Assembly: GCF_000014785.1 (NCBI RefSeq)
Contig: NC_008340.1
Coordinates: forward strand, 780,001-812,000
Length of the DNA stretch: 32,000 nt
Source: Alkalilimnicola ehrlichii MLHE-1
GTDB taxonomy: Bacteria > Pseudomonadota > Gammaproteobacteria > Nitrococcales > Halorhodospiraceae
Reading direction: 5' to 3'
Positions 3,234 to 25,905 of the stretch are shown one piece after another (the stretch's first letter is position 1; the number at the start of each line of letters is the position of its first letter). The notes beneath the pieces are model-generated. The model saw only the letters and a list, made by a program, of their open reading frames with translations. It had not been told where the DNA came from and did not search any database. The position numbers were made by a program, and so were the translations under genes.

Positions 3234-3623
3234 ATGGATGCCAGCATGAAGGTGTCTACGCTGAATGTGCAGCCGCTTCGGCCCTCGGGGGGCAGCGAGA
3301 GCCAGGGGAAGGTCTCGCTCGCGCCCGCGGGGGCCGAGGCCGTTTCCGCCGCCCGCATGGGCGACGGTGCGGCCGAAACGGCCCGCCAGGCGGAAAAGGC
3401 CGCCGAGCAGGTGGGCCAGGCGGTGGATCGGATCAACGACTTCGTGCAGGTCGTCCAGCGCGATCTGGAGTTCAGCGTGCACGACGACACCGGTCGCACC
3501 GTGGTGCGGGTGTTTGACACCAACAGCGAGGAGTTGGTGCGCCAGTTCCCCGCCGACGAGATCCTGGCCCTGGCGGAGCAGTTGGATCGGGTCCGGGGGC
3601 TGCTGGTCAGCGATCAGGCCTGA
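3234..3623 (+). CDS. flaG: FlaG-family flagellar protein (copy 1)
   Basis: 129 aa. The C-terminal block VDRINDFVQVVQRDLEFSVHDDTGRTVVRVFDTNSEELVRQFPADEILALAEQL is typical of FlaG. A GGAGGAGGA Shine-Dalgarno precedes the ATG. Its position after fliC matches Pseudomonas. Confidence 0.85.
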   Translation: MDASMKVSTLNVQPLRPSGGSESQGKVSLAPAGAEAVSAARMGDGAAETARQAEKAAEQVGQAVDRINDFVQVVQRDLEFSVHDDTGRTVVRVFDTNSEELVRQFPADEILALAEQLDRVRGLLVSDQA

Positions 3624-3774: not shown

Positions 3775-4172
3775 TGCGACGCCCCCCACCGTCACTGCGA
3801 GGAGCGAAGCGACGTGGCAGTCCAAGGCCTATGGATCGCCGCGTCGCTTCGCTCCTCGCGATGACGGTGGGATGGGCCGCCCCAGTCACTGCGAGGAGGC
3901 GGAGCCGACGTGGCAGTCTACCGCTCTGGATCGCCACGGGCCTTTGGCCCTCGCGATGACGGGGGGTGCGCCCCCTGTCACTGCGAGGAGCGAAGCGACG
4001 CGGCAGTCTACCCCTCTGGATCGCCACGGGCCTTCGGCCCAGGCGATGACGGAGAGAAGGTCGGCGGCCCTCGCAATGACAGGGGAGATCGTTCGGCGCT
4101 CGCGATGACGGTCTGGCGCGGTGGTCCCCGCAATGACGGTGGGGCCCGGGTCCTCGCGACGTCGGGTCACTG
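3775..4172 (+). repeat. Repeat cluster A of the GTCACTGCGAGG/GTCATCGCGAGG palindromic family (forward orientation; 3 full units then degenerate short modules)
   Basis: Units start at 3791, 3885 and 3977 (spacing 94 and 92 bp). Each reads GTCACTGCGAGGAGCGAAGCGACG.GGCAGTCTACC..CTGGATCGCCACGGGCCTT.GGCCCTCGCGATGAC. The tail holds repeated ..CTCGC(G/A)ATGAC.. modules up to about 4172. Confidence 0.9.
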
Positions 4173-4225: not shown

Positions 4226-4657
4226 ATGGATGGCAACAGCACTGTGACAACGCCGAACCTCGACGGGATCCGCGCAGCGGTCGCCCGTGGCCGGGAGGCG
4301 GTGTCGGGTGCCGGGGCGCGCCCGGCGACCGATGGCGCTGCGGCGCCGCGACCGGCCTCCGAGTCGGCGCCGGCCTCCGAGCCGGCCCGCGACCCGGCGC
4401 GGGCGGAGGACCCGCGGCGGGGCACCGACCCGACCGCCGAGGAGGTGGGCGAGGCGGTGGATCGCATCAACGAGTTCGTGCAACTGGTCCAGCGCGATCT
4501 GGAGTTCAGCATCGACGAGGATACGGGTCGGACGGTGGTCAAGGTGTTCGACTCGCAGAGCGAGGAGCTCGTCCGGCAGTTCCCGCCGGAGGAGATCCTG
4601 GCCATCGCCGAGCATTTAGAAGAGCTCAAGGGGCTGTTGGTCCGCGAGCAGGCGTAG
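4226..4657 (+). CDS. flaG: FlaG-family flagellar protein (copy 2, paralog)
   Basis: Track ORF 4121..4657 trimmed to the ATG at 4226. That ATG is preceded by GGCAGGAGGCAGGAG, and the upstream extension lies inside the repeat cluster. The C-terminal 73 aa match copy 1 at 53/73 positions (hand count): VDRINEFVQLVQRDLEFSIDEDTGRTVVKVFDSQSEELVRQFPPEEILAIAEHL. Confidence 0.8.
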   Translation: MDGNSTVTTPNLDGIRAAVARGREAVSGAGARPATDGAAAPRPASESAPASEPARDPARAEDPRRGTDPTAEEVGEAVDRINEFVQLVQRDLEFSIDEDTGRTVVKVFDSQSEELVRQFPPEEILAIAEHLEELKGLLVREQA

Positions 4658-4744: not shown

Positions 4745-6178
4745 ATGGCAAGTATCAGTTCCCTGGGTGTGGGGTCGGGTCTGGATATCCGCGATCTGGT
4801 CGACCAGCTGGTGGCGGCCGAGCGCCAGCCCGGTCAGAACCGGCTGGACCGCCAGGAGTCGCGGCTGGAGGCCCAGATCTCCGGGCTGGGCCGGCTGCAG
4901 CAGGCCATCACCGACTTCGGCGGTGCCCTAGGCAACGTCTCCGCTGAGAGCGACTTCCGCAGCGTGGTGGCCACCAGCAACAACGAGTCGGCGGTCAGCG
5001 TCTCCGCCGGCCGCGACGCCCCACCCGGCAGCTACGACGTCAACGTCACTCAACTGGCCCAGGCCCAGCGGCTCGCCACCAATTCGGACCTGTTCGAGGA
5101 CGTGGAGGACTTCTCGGCGGGCACCACCTCGCTGGGCACCGGCAGCTTCACTATCGAGTACCAGGACGGCAGCGCCGAGACCTTTCAACTGGAGGAAGGG
5201 GCTGACACCCTGCAGGACGTGCGCGCCGCCATCAACAACCAGAGCGAGAACGTGCGTGCCTCGGTGGTGGACGACGGCGAGGGCCCGCGGCTGGTGATCA
5301 CCAGCCGGGAGACCGGCGACCAGAACGCCGTCTCGGCGATCACCGTCGATCCCGACGACCCGGACAGCGACCCGCTGCTGGAGCGGCTGGCATTCGATGC
5401 TGAGAACCTGGCCGAGCCGGACGAGGATGGTGTGCGCGCCGGCGACAACTTTTCCCAGTTGCGCGCTGCGCAGGACGCCGAACTGTTCGTGGACGGACTG
5501 CGAATCACCCGGCCCGGCAATGAGATCAGCGGCGTGATCGATGGCGTCACCCTCACGCTCAGCGCGGTGGACAGCGCCCGGATCAACGTGGCGGAGGAGC
5601 CCGGGTCGGCCGCCTCCGCGGTGAGCGACTTTGTCGGGGCCTACAACAGCCTGCAGCGGACCCTGGGTGAGTTGAACGCCTTCGACCCGGAGTCCGGCGA
5701 GGCGGGTGAGCTCAAGGGCGACTCCACCCTCCGCTCGGTGCAGGCCCGCCTGCGCCAAATGATCAGCGAGCCGCTGCCGGGGGCGGGCGGGCCGGTGCAG
5801 ACCCTCGCGGACCTGGGCATCACCACCCGCCGGGACGGTACCCTGGAGATCAACGACGCCCGGCTGGATGATGCGCTGAGCGAGAACCGGCTGGATGTCA
5901 TCCGTCTGTTCACGGACGAGGAGAACGGGCTGGCCGCGCGCCTGCAAGGCGCCGTGGATGAGTTCACCGGCCGGGACAGCGTGATCAACAGCCGCACCGA
6001 GTCACTGCAGGACCGGCTCGCCGCCCTGGCGCCACAGCAGGAGCGCCTGGACCGGCGGATGGATCAGCTGGAGGCGAGGCTGATCCGCCAGTTTTCCGCC
6101 ATGGACTCGATGATCGCGCAGATGAACCAGACCAGCGAGTTCCTGGATAACCAGCTTAACCTGTTGAATCAGCAATAG
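4745..6178 (+). CDS. fliD: flagellar filament cap protein
   Basis: Track ORF 4736..6178. The ATG at 4745 is preferred (AGGTGGG 7 nt upstream). The N-terminus MASISSLGVGSGLDIRDLVDQLVAAERQP and the C-terminal coiled region (RLIRQFSAMDSMIAQMNQTSEFL) are typical of FliD. Confidence 0.92.
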   Translation: MASISSLGVGSGLDIRDLVDQLVAAERQPGQNRLDRQESRLEAQISGLGRLQQAITDFGGALGNVSAESDFRSVVATSNNESAVSVSAGRDAPPGSYDVNVTQLAQAQRLATNSDLFEDVEDFSAGTTSLGTGSFTIEYQDGSAETFQLEEGADTLQDVRAAINNQSENVRASVVDDGEGPRLVITSRETGDQNAVSAITVDPDDPDSDPLLERLAFDAENLAEPDEDGVRAGDNFSQLRAAQDAELFVDGLRITRPGNEISGVIDGVTLTLSAVDSARINVAEEPGSAASAVSDFVGAYNSLQRTLGELNAFDPESGEAGELKGDSTLRSVQARLRQMISEPLPGAGGPVQTLADLGITTRRDGTLEINDARLDDALSENRLDVIRLFTDEENGLAARLQGAVDEFTGRDSVINSRTESLQDRLAALAPQQERLDRRMDQLEARLIRQFSAMDSMIAQMNQTSEFLDNQLNLLNQQ

Positions 6179-6200
6179 TCGCGTCGGGCACAGGAGCCAT

Positions 6201-6700
6201 CCCCGTGATCGCGAGGGCCGAAGGCTTTTTTCCCGTCATCGCGAGGGCCGGAGGCCCGTGGCGATCCAGGGCGGTAGACTGCCGCGTCGCTTCGCTCCTC
6301 GCAGTGACAGGGGGCGCACCCCCCGTCATCGCGAGGGCCGAAGGCCCGTGGCGATCCAGAGGGGTAGACTGCCACGTCGCTTCGCTCCTCGCAGTGACAG
6401 GGGGCGCACCCCCCGTCATCGCGAGGGCCGGAGGCCCGTGGCGATCCGGAGGGGTAGACTGCCGCGTCGCTTCGCTCCTCGCAGTGACAGGGGGCGCACC
6501 CCCCGTCATCGCGAGGGCCGGAGGCCCGTGGCGATCCGGAGGGGTAGACTGCCACGTCGCTTCGCTCCTCGCAGTGACAGGGGGCGCACCCCCCGTCATC
6601 GCGAGGGCCGGAGGCCCGTGGCGATCCAGGGCGGCAGACTGCCGCGTCGGCTTCGCCTCCTCGCAGTGACGGTGGGGTGTGGGGGCGTGCTCGCAGTGAC
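6201..6700 (-). repeat. Repeat cluster B: the same family in reverse orientation, as a near-perfect 90-bp tandem array (~5 units) plus flanking short modules
   Basis: Units begin at 6241, 6331, 6421, 6511 and 6601, exactly 90 bp apart. Each reads GCGAGGGCCG(G/A)AGGCCCGTGGCGATCC(AGGGC/AGAGG/GGAGG)GGTAGACTGCC(G/A)CGTCGCTTCGCTCCTCGCAGTGACAGGGGGCGCACCCCCCGTCATC. Only about 5 positions vary among the first four units. Confidence 0.95.
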
Positions 6701-6759
6701 TGGGGAGGGCATGTGGCCCTGTCCCGGGGGAGCGGGGCACTGGTGCCGAAACACCACTA

Positions 6760-6786
6760 TCAAGTCCGGGGATGAATGGTCGCTAA
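6760..6786 (+). promoter_or_regulatory. sigma28-type promoter candidate upstream of fliS
   Basis: TCAAGTCC(6760-6767)-N11-GTCGCTAA(6779-6786). TCAAG is the Pseudomonas-style -35 variant. It lies 40 nt upstream of the fliS ATG. Confidence 0.35.
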
Positions 6787-6826
6787 CAATGGGTGACAAT
6801 CACCCAATCAGCAGAGGGCAGCGGGA

Positions 6827-7264
6827 ATGAGCTACGCAGCCATGAACAGCGGAATCGATCAGTATCAGCAGGTGGGGGCCTACAGCGGGGCGGCTTACGC
6901 CGATCCGCACCGGCTCATCGAAATGCTGCTCGATGGTGGCATCGACCGGCTCGCCCAGGCCAAGGGAGCACTGCACCAGGGCGATCGCGCCCTCAAGAGC
7001 CAGCTTATCGGCAAGGCCATCGCCATTATCGACGGGCTGCGCGGCGGGCTGGACCGCAAGGCCGGCGGCGAGCTGGCGCAGAACCTTGACGAGCTGTATG
7101 ATTACATGCAGCGACGGCTGGTCTCGGCCAACGCCCGCAACGACGAGGCCATACTCGACGAGGTCTCCAAGCTGCTCAACGAGATCCGCGATGCCTGGCA
7201 GGCGATCCCCGCCGAGCTGCGTGACAAGGAGGCGGCGGAGCGCGCCGCACGCTCCGGGCGCTGA
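6827..7264 (+). CDS. fliS: flagellin-specific chaperone FliS
   Basis: 145 aa. YADPHRLIEMLLDGGIDRLAQAKGAL...KAIAIIDGLRGGLD...GGELAQNLDELYDYMQRRLVSANARND matches the FliS four-helix pattern. Synteny follows fliD. An alternative ATG at 6842 is possible. Confidence 0.9.
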   Translation: MSYAAMNSGIDQYQQVGAYSGAAYADPHRLIEMLLDGGIDRLAQAKGALHQGDRALKSQLIGKAIAIIDGLRGGLDRKAGGELAQNLDELYDYMQRRLVSANARNDEAILDEVSKLLNEIRDAWQAIPAELRDKEAAERAARSGR

Positions 7265-14154: not shown

Positions 14155-15042
14155 ATGAACGACAAGACCCGGCACAAGACCGGCGCGGCGGGCGAGGGCG
14201 CTGAGGCCGGCCGCGGCCGGGTACGGATCATCCCCGCCGAGGCGGCCGGCGAGACCTTCGCCCGCTGGGCGGCGGCGCCGAAGCCGGAGCGAGGCCAGGC
14301 CCCGGAACGGCCGGAGGCAAGCCAGCGTGCAAGTGGTGGGCAGCGGGACTACGCCGGCTTCCGCAAGCCGCAGCGCCGCGAGGCCGCGCGCATGCCCACC
14401 GCGGCGGATATTGAGGCGCTGCAGCAGCAGGCCTGGGACGAGGGCTACCGGGCCGGCGAGCGGGCCGGCCGCGAGGCCGGTTACGCCGAGGGCCACCGGG
14501 AGGGGCTGGAGGCCGGGCAGCGCGAGGGCCACGCCGCGGGCTACCAGGCCGGCGAGCAGGCCGCGCACCGGCTGGTGGAGCGGATGGACGGGCTGGTGCG
14601 CCAACTGGACCGGCCATTGGAGCAGATGGACGAGGAGGTGGAGCAGGCGCTGGCGGAGCTGGCCATGCACCTGGCCCGGCAGGTGATCTACCGCGAGCTG
14701 CGCATCCAACCCGGTGAGATCGTGCGCCTGATCCGCGAGGCCGTGGGATTGCTGCCGGTGGGCGCCCGCAACGTGGAGGTGCACCTGCACCCGGAAGACG
14801 CCCGCTTTATCCGCGAGGCCCTGAGCGCCGATGGCGGGGGCGAACAGGCGTGGCGGCTGGTGGAGGACCCGGCCATCAACCGTGGCGGCTGCCGGGTCAG
14901 CACGGAGACCTCGCATATCGACGCCACCCTGGAGCATCGTCTGGCCCAGTTGGCGCAACAGGTGCTGGGCAACGGCCGTGACGCTCAGGGCGAGGACGGC
15001 GATGGCACGGATCGTAACGCAGAGGCTGGTCGCCATGAGTGA
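14155..15042 (+). CDS. fliH: flagellar assembly protein FliH
   Basis: 295 aa. It has an Ala/Glu/Arg-rich coiled region ([28 protein letters not shown]) and a FliH C-domain ([13 protein letters not shown] ... [20 protein letters not shown]). Synteny fliG-fliH-fliI. Confidence 0.85.
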
Positions 15043-16938: not shown

Positions 16939-17330
16939 GGATCGCCACGTCGCTGCGCTCCTCTTGAAGAACTTGACTGTGCCGGCAGCGGAAGGTCGCC
17001 CCCACCGTCACTGCGAGGAGGCGAAGCCGACGCGGCAGTCTACCGCCCTGGATCGCCACGGGCCTTCGGCCCTCGCGATGACGGGGGGAGGGGCCACCCC
17101 GTCACTGCGAGGAGGCGAAGCCGACGCGGCAGTCTACCGCCCTGGATCGCCACGGGCCTTCGGCCCTCGCGATGACGGGGGGAGGGGCCACCCCGTCACT
17201 GCGAGGAGCGAAGCGACGCGGCAGTCTACCCCTCTGGATCGCCACGGGCCTTCGGCCCTCGCGATGACGGGGAGGAGGTGGCGGCCCTCGCGATGACGGG
17301 GGAAAGCCTTCGGCCCTGGCGATGCCAGGG
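16939..17330 (+). repeat. Repeat cluster C (forward orientation; 3 units at 94-bp spacing plus a head module and short tail modules)
   Basis: Units start at 17007, 17101 and 17195. The first two carry the GAGGAGGCGAAGCCGACG variant and the third GAGGAGCGAAGCGACG. The tail modules are GGCCCTCGCGATGACGGGG. Confidence 0.9.
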
Positions 17331-17415
17331 ATGCCCCGTTCCTCGTTGATTCGGGCCCGCGTAGCGAGGAGTGGGGCTCACGATGACGCGTGCGCCGTCC
17401 CCGGGTAGACGGCAT

Positions 17416-18631: not shown

Positions 18632-18642
18632 CGCGCCCCGCC

Positions 18643-18866
18643 GTCACTGCGAGGAGCGAAGGGGCGCGGCAGTCCAAGCCGGGGTGTGGATCGCCGCGTC
18701 GCTGCGCTCCTCGCGATGACGGGGGTGGTGTCTCCCCCGCCGTCGGCGTGGTGCCTCCCCTCCCCCACCGTCACTGCGAGGAGGCGAAGCCGACGCGGCA
18801 GTCTACCGCTCTGGATCGCCACGGGCCTGCGGCCCTCGCGATGATGGGGGGAAGCCTTCGGCCCCT
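18643..18866 (+). repeat. Repeat cluster D (forward orientation; one long-palindrome unit and one standard unit)
   Basis: Units start at 18643 (GTCACTGCGAGGAGCGAAGGGGCGCGGCAGTCCAAG...GGATCGCCGCGTCGCTGCGCTCCTCGCGATGAC) and at 18770 (GTCACTGCGAGGAGGCGAAGCCGACGCGGCAGTCTACCGCTCTGGATCGCCACGGGCCTGCGGCCCTCGCGATGAT). The cluster begins 12 nt after the fliK stop. Confidence 0.88.
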
Positions 18867-25339: not shown

Positions 25340-25342
25340 ACC

Positions 25343-25905
25343 ATTGCGAGGGCCAAAGGCTTTCCCCCGTCATCGCGAGGGCCAAAGGCTTTCCCCCGTC
25401 ATCGCGAGGGCCGAAGGCTTTCCCCCCGTCATCGCGAGGGCCGAAGGCCCGTGGCGATCCAGAGGGGTAGACTGCCACGTCGCTTCGCTCCTCGCAGTGA
25501 CGATGGAGGTGGGTCCGCAGTGACGGTGGGGGCGACTTGCCGCTTCCGGTACAGTCCAGTTCTTCAAGAGGGCCGCCGCCTCCTCCCCGTCATCGCGAGG
25601 GCCGAAGGCCCGTGGCGATCCAGAGGGGTAGACTGCCACGTCGGCTTCGCCTCCTCGCAGTGACGGTGGGGGTGGGCCTCCTCGCAGTGACGGTGGGGGG
25701 TGCCCCTTCCCGCAGTTACGGTGGGGGTGCCCCTTCCCGCAGTGACGGTGGGGACGGCACCACCCCCGTCATCGCGAGGAGCGCAGCGACGCGGCGATCC
25801 AGACGCCCGCCTGGACTGCCACGCCCCCGCCGGGGGGTCGCCGTGAAGGTGGGGTTGGGCCGCGCTCGTAGTGGCGGTAGGGACGGCACCACCCCCGCGA
25901 TGCCG
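25343..25905 (-). repeat. Repeat cluster E (mostly reverse orientation; mosaic of short tandem modules, two standard units, a head module and a partial long-palindrome arm)
   Basis: It contains three copies of (C)GTCATCGCGAGGGCC(A/G)AAGGCTTTCCCC at 25343-25440. Standard units lie at about 25425-25500 and 25587-25672. Four copies of (CCT)CGCAGT(G/T)ACGGTGGGG.. lie at about 25650-25755. GTCATCGCGAGGAGCGCAGCGACGCGGCGATCCAG lies at about 25767-25803. The cluster fills the gap between convergent scpB and the small minus-strand ORF. Confidence 0.9.

Follow-up and report, generated by a model that had tools for sequence, protein, structure and literature searches.

A REP-type cluster of tandem hairpin heterodimers between the flagellar genes fliD and fliS of Alkalilimnicola ehrlichii MLHE-1

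Introduction

In the bacterial interspersed mosaic elements (BIMEs) of the BIME-2 type of Escherichia coli, described by Gilson, Bachellier and Hofnung, two inverted, alternating subtypes of repetitive extragenic palindromes (REPs) are joined by two alternating linkers and repeated in varying numbers between co-directional genes. The REPs of E. coli stabilise the upstream mRNA and attenuate translation or transcription. The present study deals with an array of 90-bp units between the genes fliD and fliS of Alkalilimnicola ehrlichii MLHE-1. It lies in a stretch of 32,000 nucleotides (contig NC_008340.1, positions 780,001 to 812,000 of the forward strand), which is called the window below and to whose positions all coordinates refer unless another sequence is named.

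Two described systems come close to this array. In Pseudomonas fluorescens SBW25, tandem repeats of near-identical REP doublets including their flanks are the commonest higher-order arrangement of REPINs, the REP doublets forming hairpins (Bertels and Rainey 2011, PMC3116915). For the CGTC REPs, Di Nocera, De Gregorio and Rocco (2013, PMC3733652) describe a terminal CGTC/TGTC tag, a stem starting with an A-T pair, a CCA tail and mostly HH (tag-outward) dimers; heterodimers are common, several phyla are represented, and the repeats have no associated transposase. The families CGTC-1 to CGTC-4 are characterised in the same paper by uninterrupted stems of 8–9 bp and loops of 4–5 nt, their clusters are called rare, and the superfamily includes the dRS3 clusters of Neisseria.

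An earlier description made from the letters of the window alone (the original prediction) had reported the array as a head-to-tail repeat of likely variable copy number. The array is a member of a known repeat class, that of REP/BIME/REPIN-type clusters, and is CGTC-like. By far the best explanation, in which we have high confidence, is a non-coding REP/BIME-type cluster of five tandem, REPIN-like convergent heterodimers of a dispersed CGTC-like hairpin family, which is resized in whole units.

Results

The 90-bp unit is a convergent pair of hairpin modules

Tandem Repeats Finder, applied to the window, delimited the array at 6232–6670 with a period of 90, 4.9 copies, 95% matches and no indels. 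The 90-bp array of the original prediction is thus real, and the starts given there (6241, 6331 and so on) are another phase of the same array. In the 6232 register units 1–4 differ pairwise at 1–4 of 90 nt, and only five columns are variable, namely 6251, 6268, 6270, 6272 and 6284 (with the equivalents at +90n). Position 6251 is the G/A in the GGCCGRAGGCCC loop, 6268, 6270 and 6272 form the CCAGGGCGG / CCAGAGGGG / CCGGAGGGG patch, and 6284 is the GCCRCG position; exactly these five had been named before. The switch of the fifth unit with subsequent decay was found as well: unit 5 (6592–6681), of the GGCTTCGCC type, contains two complementary 1-nt insertions as well as another 3′ linker, after which the repeat decays.

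The 90-bp unit is not a simple repeat. It is a convergent (inverted) pair of two homologous hairpin modules of about 34 nt, a REP-type dimer which the original prediction had missed. Since the unit is an inverted dimer of REP-type hairpins, the array falls into a known class (REPIN/BIME clusters). The module pattern is GTCAYYGCGAGG-[variable stem-loop]-CGYGGCRRTC, and the two module types, A and B, share the frame YGTC-A(YY)GC-GA-[inner stem-loop]-GYG-GC(RR)T-C. Five type-A modules are located on the plus strand (6229–6274, 6319–6364, 6409–6454, 6499–6544 and 6589–6634; cmsearch 49–54 bits, E ~1e-11 to 1e-12). They read CGTC-ATCGC-GA-GGGCC-GRA-GGCCC-GTG-GCGAT-CCA, with a fully Watson-Crick inner stem. 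Five type-B or B′ modules were identified on the minus strand by cmsearch (51–56 bits) and by sequence (6269–6314, 6359–6404, 6449–6494, 6539–6584 and 6629–6676). Type B reads YGTC-ACTGC-GA-GGAGC-GAA-GCGAC-GYG-GCAGT-CTAC, so that the plus strand reads GTAG-ACTGC..., and the base of its inner stem is formed by tandem G.A/A.G pairs. Variant B′ (GAGGAGGCGAAGCCGACG) has one additional inner base pair, and a variant C combines the outer stem of A with the inner stem of B.

Each unit consists of an A module (+), a tail linker of about 10 nt, a B module (−) and the head linker GGGGGCGCACCCCCC of 15–18 nt, which joins the heads to the next unit. Four near-identical units (starting at 6232, 6322, 6412 and 6502) occupy 6232–6591, as seen from the repeat finder output, the pairwise differences and the module coordinates. 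By sequence and module matches, the variant fifth unit pairs A with B′, whose inner stem is one bp longer, and carries a different head linker. The type-A hairpin was predicted to fold with −9.1 kcal/mol (z = −2.2), one unit could form a single hairpin of about 80 nt on either strand, and the RNA of the whole array folds much better than shuffled sequences (z = −5.9).

These features were compared with those of the known classes. The module lies in the size range of 20–40 nt given for REPs and BIMEs in general; it is a short imperfect palindrome with 31 full copies in 32 kb, all intergenic, as is typical for these. Subtypes alternate as A(+)/B(−) with alternating linkers five times in tandem. 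As in REPIN clusters, the doublet can fold as one hairpin, and near-identical doublets with their flanks follow each other head to tail. All modules of the window have C or T before GTC, corresponding to the CGTC/TGTC tag. A GTAG tag, present in more than 90% of the members of GTAG families, is found only in B/B′ (GTAGACTGCC); A and C read CTGGATCGCC, and about half of the modules lack GTAG.

Some other readings of the repeat were ruled out by inspection. A kink-turn formed by the tandem G.A pairs does not apply, as a G-C pair separates the G.A pairs from the internal loop and the strands are unlike the k-turn layout. Unique spacers of the kind seen in CRISPR arrays are absent, and so are the GTTRRRY and dif cores of integron attC and dif sites.

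The module family in the window

The module pattern had 29 exact matches in the window, compared to 0.00 expected from shuffles, and a covariance model found 31 full modules of 32–34 nt each in five clusters, all between co-directional genes. The four sister clusters are flaG1|flaG2 (3785–4165), fliJ|fliK (16946–17330, with 2.9 units of 94 bp), fliK|M48 peptidase gene (18637–18851, two dimers) and scpB|Rrf2-suf (25340–25807, dimers together with head-fragment runs of 29-nt and 27-nt periods). As clusters also stand beside non-flagellar genes (scpB|Rrf2, fliK|M48), the family is not specific for the flagellum.

The original prediction had assigned the 90-bp array to a distinct sub-lineage because other clusters have periods of 92–94 bp. 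This view has to be abandoned, since a matching inverted unit is present in the flaG1|flaG2 cluster and subtypes interconvert between strains. Unit and linker at 3906–4084 show 91–95% identity to the fliD|fliS unit over 147–179 nt (BLAST) in opposite orientation. The difference of 2–4 bp in period results from B versus B′ (the two 1-nt insertions) and from linker length. Subtypes are indeed mixed: unit 5 of the 90-bp array is itself B′, and strain SGAR-12 has B′ in one unit of the 94-bp array where MLHE-1 has B.

The inverted unit copies at 3906–4084 and 6201–6379 bracket the 2.1-kb flaG2-fliD segment and are a possible substrate for its inversion by homologous recombination; the inverted arrangement of this segment was seen in neither MLHE-1 nor SGAR-12. 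flaG itself is duplicated (3400–3619 and 4434–4653, 80% identity over 220 nt, both matching Pfam FlaG), with the REP cluster in between. Runs of truncated heads with a C- or G-rich spacer were observed at cluster edges (25342–25448, 25656–25753, 17248–17331 and 6205–6231). They comprise a 29-nt type GTCATCGCGAGGGCCRAAGGCTTTCCCCC, a 27-nt type GTCACTGCGAGGAGGCCCACCCCCACC and, in a related species, a 23-nt form (L130:3730–3835), and are found without exception on the head side of a complete dimer. An imperfect repeat of another kind (48 bp × 2.7, 68% matches) at 14439–14567 in the fliH coding region occurs in SGAR-12 too and has the appearance of a normal coding repeat.

Unit number differs between two strains in whole units

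The genome of strain SGAR-12 (CP184336; PMC12509624) was compared to that of MLHE-1. Aligned flanks are 99.1–99.9% identical, and the FliD and FliS proteins are identical. The fliD|fliS array has 4.9 units in MLHE-1 versus 3.9 in SGAR-12, a clean 90-bp indel, so that the fliD-fliS spacer measures 648 bp in the former and 558 bp in the latter. The missing unit is the equivalent of unit 4, and in the rest of the spacer a single base is different. Two sister clusters vary as well: fliJ|fliK has 2.9 units of 94 bp in MLHE-1 versus 5.9 in SGAR-12 (L179:1748–2304), and fliK|M48 has 2 versus 4 dimers (L179:3669–4091). In the scpB|Rrf2 cluster the number of modules is equal in both strains. Since the same hybrid assembly pipeline resolved the longer array of MLHE-1, the shorter array of SGAR-12 is probably real.

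Indels between the strains always comprise whole units and lie inside existing arrays, and in the approximately 32 kb compared neither strain has gained or lost a dimer at a new site. The unit of the 94-bp array which is B in MLHE-1 and B′ in SGAR-12 (17195–17233) differs by the two complementary insertions and by two linker substitutions that match the neighbouring unit, and this change looks like conversion by that neighbour. Thus, the copy-number variability proposed in the original prediction is borne out by a second strain and by two sister clusters, and the proposed concerted evolution has a counterpart in the conversion-like homogenisation of neighbouring units in the sister 94-bp array. 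The proposed very recent amplification stands only in part. The array is dynamic, but units are 1–4% apart and the strains differ by 0.1–0.9% in aligned flanks (about 0.2% by SNP count); as the divergence between units exceeds that between strains, the array predates the strain split and undergoes resizing.

Regarding the age of the locus, a metagenome scan for relatives yielded one close relative, the environmental contig L130 (FliS identity 89%). In its fliD-fliS spacer of 294 bp, 4.6 copies of a 23-nt head fragment precede the only dimer, which is convergent; both flaG genes are present in L130, too, with a dimer between them. A dimer at fliD|fliS in L130 indicates that the site was occupied before the lineages split, and the array of five units would have arisen in the lineage of A. 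ehrlichii. No modules were found within 4 kb of more distant fliS loci.

The array is non-coding

Four stop-free open reading frames (ORFs) of 128–194 aa run across the array (6156–6740 and 6169–6555 on the minus strand, 6205–6669 and 6258–6830 on the plus strand). All four had been listed in the original prediction, and none looks coding. A GC-rich repeat with a length of 30 codons would be expected to leave frames open on either strand. In neither strain does the NCBI annotation have a gene between fliD and fliS, and none of the four ORFs matched a Pfam family above its cut-off. A sub-threshold match of 19 residues of the ORF 6205–6669 (+) to DUF1427 (22.4 bits, cut-off 27.1) probably stems from composition. 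None of the exact ORF sequences was found in the protein collection, which is weak evidence, as an alternative start codon would hide a match. We conclude that the array is non-coding.

It can hardly be assumed that the repeat encodes a repetitive protein or that an assembly error produced the array or its copy number. Four frames open over 128–194 aa, a period that is a multiple of 3 and the failure of short-read assemblies to cross the array would agree with one or the other of these assumptions. Nevertheless, called genes and Pfam families above cut-off are lacking, and elsewhere the modules occur in every orientation and frame, which speaks against a protein. An artefact is made improbable by the presence of the array in two hybrid long-read assemblies, both of which have the unit-specific SNPs in consistent order.

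Mobility of the dimers

Dimers of this kind might be GTAG-type REPINs moved by a single-copy RAYT (REP-associated tyrosine transposase of the HUH/Y1 family) encoded elsewhere in the chromosome, with the array built by repeated insertion beside a resident copy. We consider this unlikely, although the dimer architecture equals that of a REPIN (PMC3116915). Every B module reads GTAG-ACTGC...GCAGT-GAC on the opposite strand, with GTAG abutting the foot of the hairpin, a hallmark of RAYT substrates according to PMC3733652. HUH enzymes recognise imperfect hairpins that have an internal loop and a conserved tetranucleotide beside them (PMC6006769), a layout with which that of the module agrees. The iterated head fragments at array edges could be scars of repeated insertion at one site. 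However, A modules carry CTGG where B modules carry GTAG, and neither the 32-kb window nor some 55 kb of sequence from SGAR-12 (L001/L179) contained a Y1/HUH gene. Among 120 unrelated loci probed by tblastn with an approximate E. coli YafM sequence, only one Y1_Tnp gene was detected (in L114, verified by Pfam); as a module is present on one side of it only, this gene was ruled out as a REPtron. Furthermore, PMC3733652 does not report transposases flanked by CGTC-type repeats, and the strain indels are whole units in existing arrays, with no dimer at a new site over about 32 kb. Literature searches combining Alkalilimnicola with RAYT or REP found nothing.

A different mobile element is associated with the family. 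In SGAR-12 an IS110-family element of about 1.64 kb (L001:5478–7121; Pfam DEDD_Tnp_IS110 and Transposase_20) is inserted in a module head of the flaG1|flaG2 cluster. The site is CCTC^GCGATGAC with CTC at both junctions, corresponding to 3857/3858 of the window within the head at 3854–3865 on the minus strand, and it is empty in MLHE-1. Because the element lies exactly in the module head, the repeat family appears to be a specific IS110 target, as has been reported for other REPs.

The 94-bp array (17001–17330) was observed to lie within a transposase-less shell (16964–17379) whose ends resemble the IS110 element of SGAR-12. Its left end GCTCCTC|TTGAAGAACTTGACTG matches the element at 13 of 16 positions with the same split site, and its right end (17331–17379) shares 86% identity with the final 51 nt of the element (E = 9e-11) and is followed by the rest of the split module. 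A near-identical left-end junction recurs in inverted orientation at 25530–25572. Judged from these ends, the shell may be a miniature IS110 derivative carrying REP dimers.

It is very unlikely that the fliD|fliS cluster itself was seeded or enlarged by a head-targeting IS110-family element with miniature derivatives carrying modules as cargo. The insertion in SGAR-12, exactly at CCTC^GCGATGAC of a module head with the CTC core on both sides, as well as the IS-ended shell around the 94-bp array and the second left-end junction at 25530–25572, fit such a process. BLAST of the element against the window, however, revealed no IS-end-like sequence flanking the cluster at 6205–6700, and the strain indels at fliD|fliS are exact multiples of the unit.

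Distribution and covariation of the module

One genome per species was scanned with the pattern GTCAYYGCGAGG-N10-12-CGYGGCRRTC. At least 120 stretches matched, and the figures given here across genomes rest on the matches listed. For the whole collection 1–55 matches would be expected by chance, depending on GC content. The bipartite hairpin was found in more than 15 bacterial phyla, among them Chloroflexota, Bacillota, Bacteroidota, Patescibacteria, Nitrospirota, Planctomycetota, Verrucomicrobiota, Fibrobacterota, Campylobacterota and Armatimonadota, as well as all classes of Pseudomonadota.

Since the search pattern dictates the flanks, unbiased evidence for pairing comes from the inner stem and from the Y/R positions only. 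Of 96 distinct modules taken from unrelated genomes, 92 are complementary at the outer-stem YY/RR positions, for which any combination was permitted. The inner segment was left unspecified, yet it forms a hairpin in nearly all matches. Inner-stem positions 2–4 are Watson-Crick paired in 91–97% with 4–5 pair types, the two basal positions form tandem G.A/A.G or Watson-Crick pairs, and the loop, usually of 3 nt, is mostly GAA or GCA. Inner-stem pairing amounts to 0.80, versus 0.54 ± 0.02 with shuffled partners. Double-sided compensatory cells number 96 versus 17.5 ± 3.4 in shuffles, a value reached in none of 500 shuffles, and sliding the partner columns abolished the covariation signal. Of 141 cross-phylum matches, 73 have C and 60 have T immediately before GTC, an A-T stem start (AT) is present in 74 of the 96 modules, and about 42% have a CCA tail.

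Convergent dimers predominate in the window and in other genomes; a few arrays are alternating or same-strand (L052, L088, L087). On plasmids and phages the module is rare (7 plasmid and 4 phage records) and is never annotated there. Among ORFs within 2.5 kb of the modules at 120 loci, all-against-all BLAST revealed no recurring gene family apart from ABC transporters and histidine kinases. Rfam 15 gave no match in the window at the gathering threshold; sub-threshold hits were plant and animal miRNA hairpins with less than half of the gathering scores. No relevant paper was found when the literature was searched for the text of the module sequence and of the peptides expected from it. These peptides are also absent from the supplementary tables of PMC3733652.

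Modules were also seen inside long stop-free frames: at L114:3113–3158 in a 300-aa ORF matching prepilin peptidase A24 (Daviesbacteria metagenome-assembled genome, MAG), at L092:2594–2877 in a 1300-aa frame (Thioalkalivibrio sp. ALE14) and at L019:6438–6484 in a 947-aa frame (Oscillospiraceae MAG). These may be intragenic insertions, which have been reported for other REPs.

As a tentative and rather doubtful extension, the module of about 34 nt (YGTC-AYYGC-GA-[covarying stem, GNA loop]-GYG-GCRRT-CCA) might represent a pan-bacterial structured repeat family outside Rfam and outside the four published CGTC families, with which it was compared by text description. Its near-invariant flanks across phyla would imply a conserved recognising enzyme or host factor. 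IS110-family elements would target the heads and leave module-carrying, transposase-less shells, a route by which clusters could seed themselves.

Neighbouring genes and possible effects on expression

The array starts 27 nt past the fliD stop codon, and both flanking genes are co-directional on the plus strand. Pfam supports the assignment of both genes made in the original prediction. Upstream is fliD (4745–6178, stop codon 6176–6178; Pfam FliD_N, Flagellin_IN, FliD_C), which encodes the flagellar cap protein and is called with a product of 477 aa in both strains. Downstream is fliS for the flagellin chaperone (6827–7264; Pfam FliS), followed by fliT and a gene for a FleQ-type activator (Pfam). 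The left edge of the cluster (6205–6231) is a half A module on the plus strand, a truncated head (GTGATCGCGAGGGCCGAAGGC; head match at 6205 with one mismatch), followed by TTTTTT; such edge fragments are also present at other clusters. The right edge is an isolated head fragment on the minus strand (GTCACTGCGAGC, 6682–6700; head match at 6700 with one mismatch).

A pattern match to a sigma-28 (FliA) promoter, TCAA-N15-GTCGCTAA, was found on the plus strand at 6760–6786, 40 nt upstream of the fliS start. The consensus from E. coli and Salmonella is TAAA-N15-GCCGATAA. In L130 the motif is conserved as TCAA-N15-GCCGTTAG (approximately 3935–3961). This suggests that fliS may have its own FliA-dependent promoter downstream of the array. 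Of the separate transcription units for fliD and fliS assumed in the original prediction, that of fliS is made plausible by the conserved motif, although the latter is a pattern match only.

It was considered whether the array is a selected cis-acting RNA element, acting as a multi-hairpin 3′ untranslated region or insulator between the cistrons or as a protein-titrating RNA, with its copy number setting the FliD:FliS ratio. This idea, which is compatible with a REP origin, is possible but on the whole rather unlikely. It is in line with the start 27 nt after the fliD stop codon, with the location between co-directional genes, which is common to all five clusters, and with the very strong RNA folding signal (z = −5.9). 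G.T wobbles exceed A.C mismatches by 9 to 2 in the inner stems of the cross-genome matches, the site is occupied in the related species L130, and the effects of E. coli REPs on upstream mRNA and on attenuation lend further support. On the other hand, clusters beside non-flagellar genes are at odds with a flagellar specificity, and there is no Rfam match. A strand signal is absent, because with inverted dimers as units the two module types are present on either strand. Finally, the number of units varies freely between strains that are nearly identical, and this speaks against a tight selection on length. A function as a CsrA sponge, conceivable because G variants make GGA in the loops, was ruled out, as GGA occurs 6 times compared to 8.3 ± 2.5 expected.

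Discussion

A REP/BIME-type cluster resized in whole units accounts for the architecture of the array, its relatives in the window and its variation between strains. A single dimer would already have been present at fliD|fliS in the ancestor shared with the related species and would then have been amplified in the A. ehrlichii lineage. From then on, unequal homologous recombination or replication slippage between the 90-bp units would have kept changing the size of the array and homogenising it, and no new transposition would be needed as an explanation. With low confidence, and derived from the order of the predicted elements, a role in expression can be imagined: if transcribed from the fliD promoter, the ten GC-rich hairpins would form a putative 3′ barrier that may protect the fliD mRNA and attenuate read-through. 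fliS would then be expressed mainly from its own sigma-28-like promoter, and the length of the array would tune the insulation.

Several points weigh against the explanation as a resized REP/BIME-type cluster with this course of events. Copy numbers were read from two hybrid assemblies of one laboratory, and all short-read (Logan) contigs end at the cluster borders. Over 11,668 bp the window has 100% identity to the chromosome CP183314 of the type strain MLHE-1, an assembly which may be the same record and not an independent confirmation. The choice of recombination or slippage over repeated targeted insertion was made from whole-unit indels only. The sigma-28 motif is a consensus match, and simple scans predicted no promoter or intrinsic terminator in 5900–7100. 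Lastly, in a comparison based on the text description of CGTC-1 to CGTC-4 in PMC3733652, the stem of the module differs in being bipartite (5 + 5–6 bp) with a conserved 2 × 3 GA/GYG internal loop, and its loop has 3 nt.

The array and its sister clusters are hot spots resembling variable number tandem repeats (VNTRs) and make up most structural differences between the two strains in this region. Strain typing, the quality control of assemblies and annotation have to take them into account, since every short-read assembly breaks at their borders and spurious ORFs arise from them in four frames. They represent a well-documented case of whole-unit expansion, contraction and conversion in a CGTC-like REP cluster. 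We know of no mobilising enzyme for the CGTC-like REP group, and a covarying hairpin with invariant flanks in more than 15 phyla sharpens the question of its recogniser. With fliD on one side and a putatively sigma-28-driven fliS on the other, the array also offers a simple system for relating REP-array length to expression. Of somewhat greater interest than the array itself is the unannotated, pan-bacterial hairpin family together with its interplay with IS110 elements.

Compared with the described systems, the array parallels BIME-2 of E. coli in its alternating subtypes and linkers, whereas hairpin sequence and tag are unrelated, the REPs of E. coli being of the GTAG-3 type. The modules resemble GTAG REPs and REPtrons (with RAYT, or TnpA-REP, genes) in size, in the imperfect hairpin with an unpaired tetranucleotide at its foot and in forming dimers and clusters; in contrast to these, A modules lack GTAG, and a RAYT gene was adjacent in none of about 125 loci examined. 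With the REPIN clusters of SBW25 (PMC3116915) the array shares the inverted doublet, the tandem arrangement of doublets with linkers and the extragenic location. The size is also similar, as the largest SBW25 cluster has four REPINs and one REP and the A. ehrlichii array has five. The REPINs of SBW25, however, are of the GTAG type, and each family lies beside its own RAYT gene, whereas in A. ehrlichii the tag is CGTC/TGTC, the halves of the dimer belong to different subtypes and no RAYT was located in the sequence examined. Set against SBW25, a change of copy number from strain to strain is directly documented for the A. ehrlichii array. In tag and dimer type the modules agree with the CGTC REPs of PMC3733652. 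Type-A modules fit the CGTC frame exactly (CGTC tag, AT...AT stem start, CCA tail), and type B, with AC...GT and a CTA(C) tail, deviates from it at position 2 and in the tail. HH dimers predominate in A. ehrlichii too, heterodimers are formed, the distribution crosses phyla and no flanked transposase was found at the loci examined; unlike the published CGTC families, the copies in A. ehrlichii are mostly clustered.

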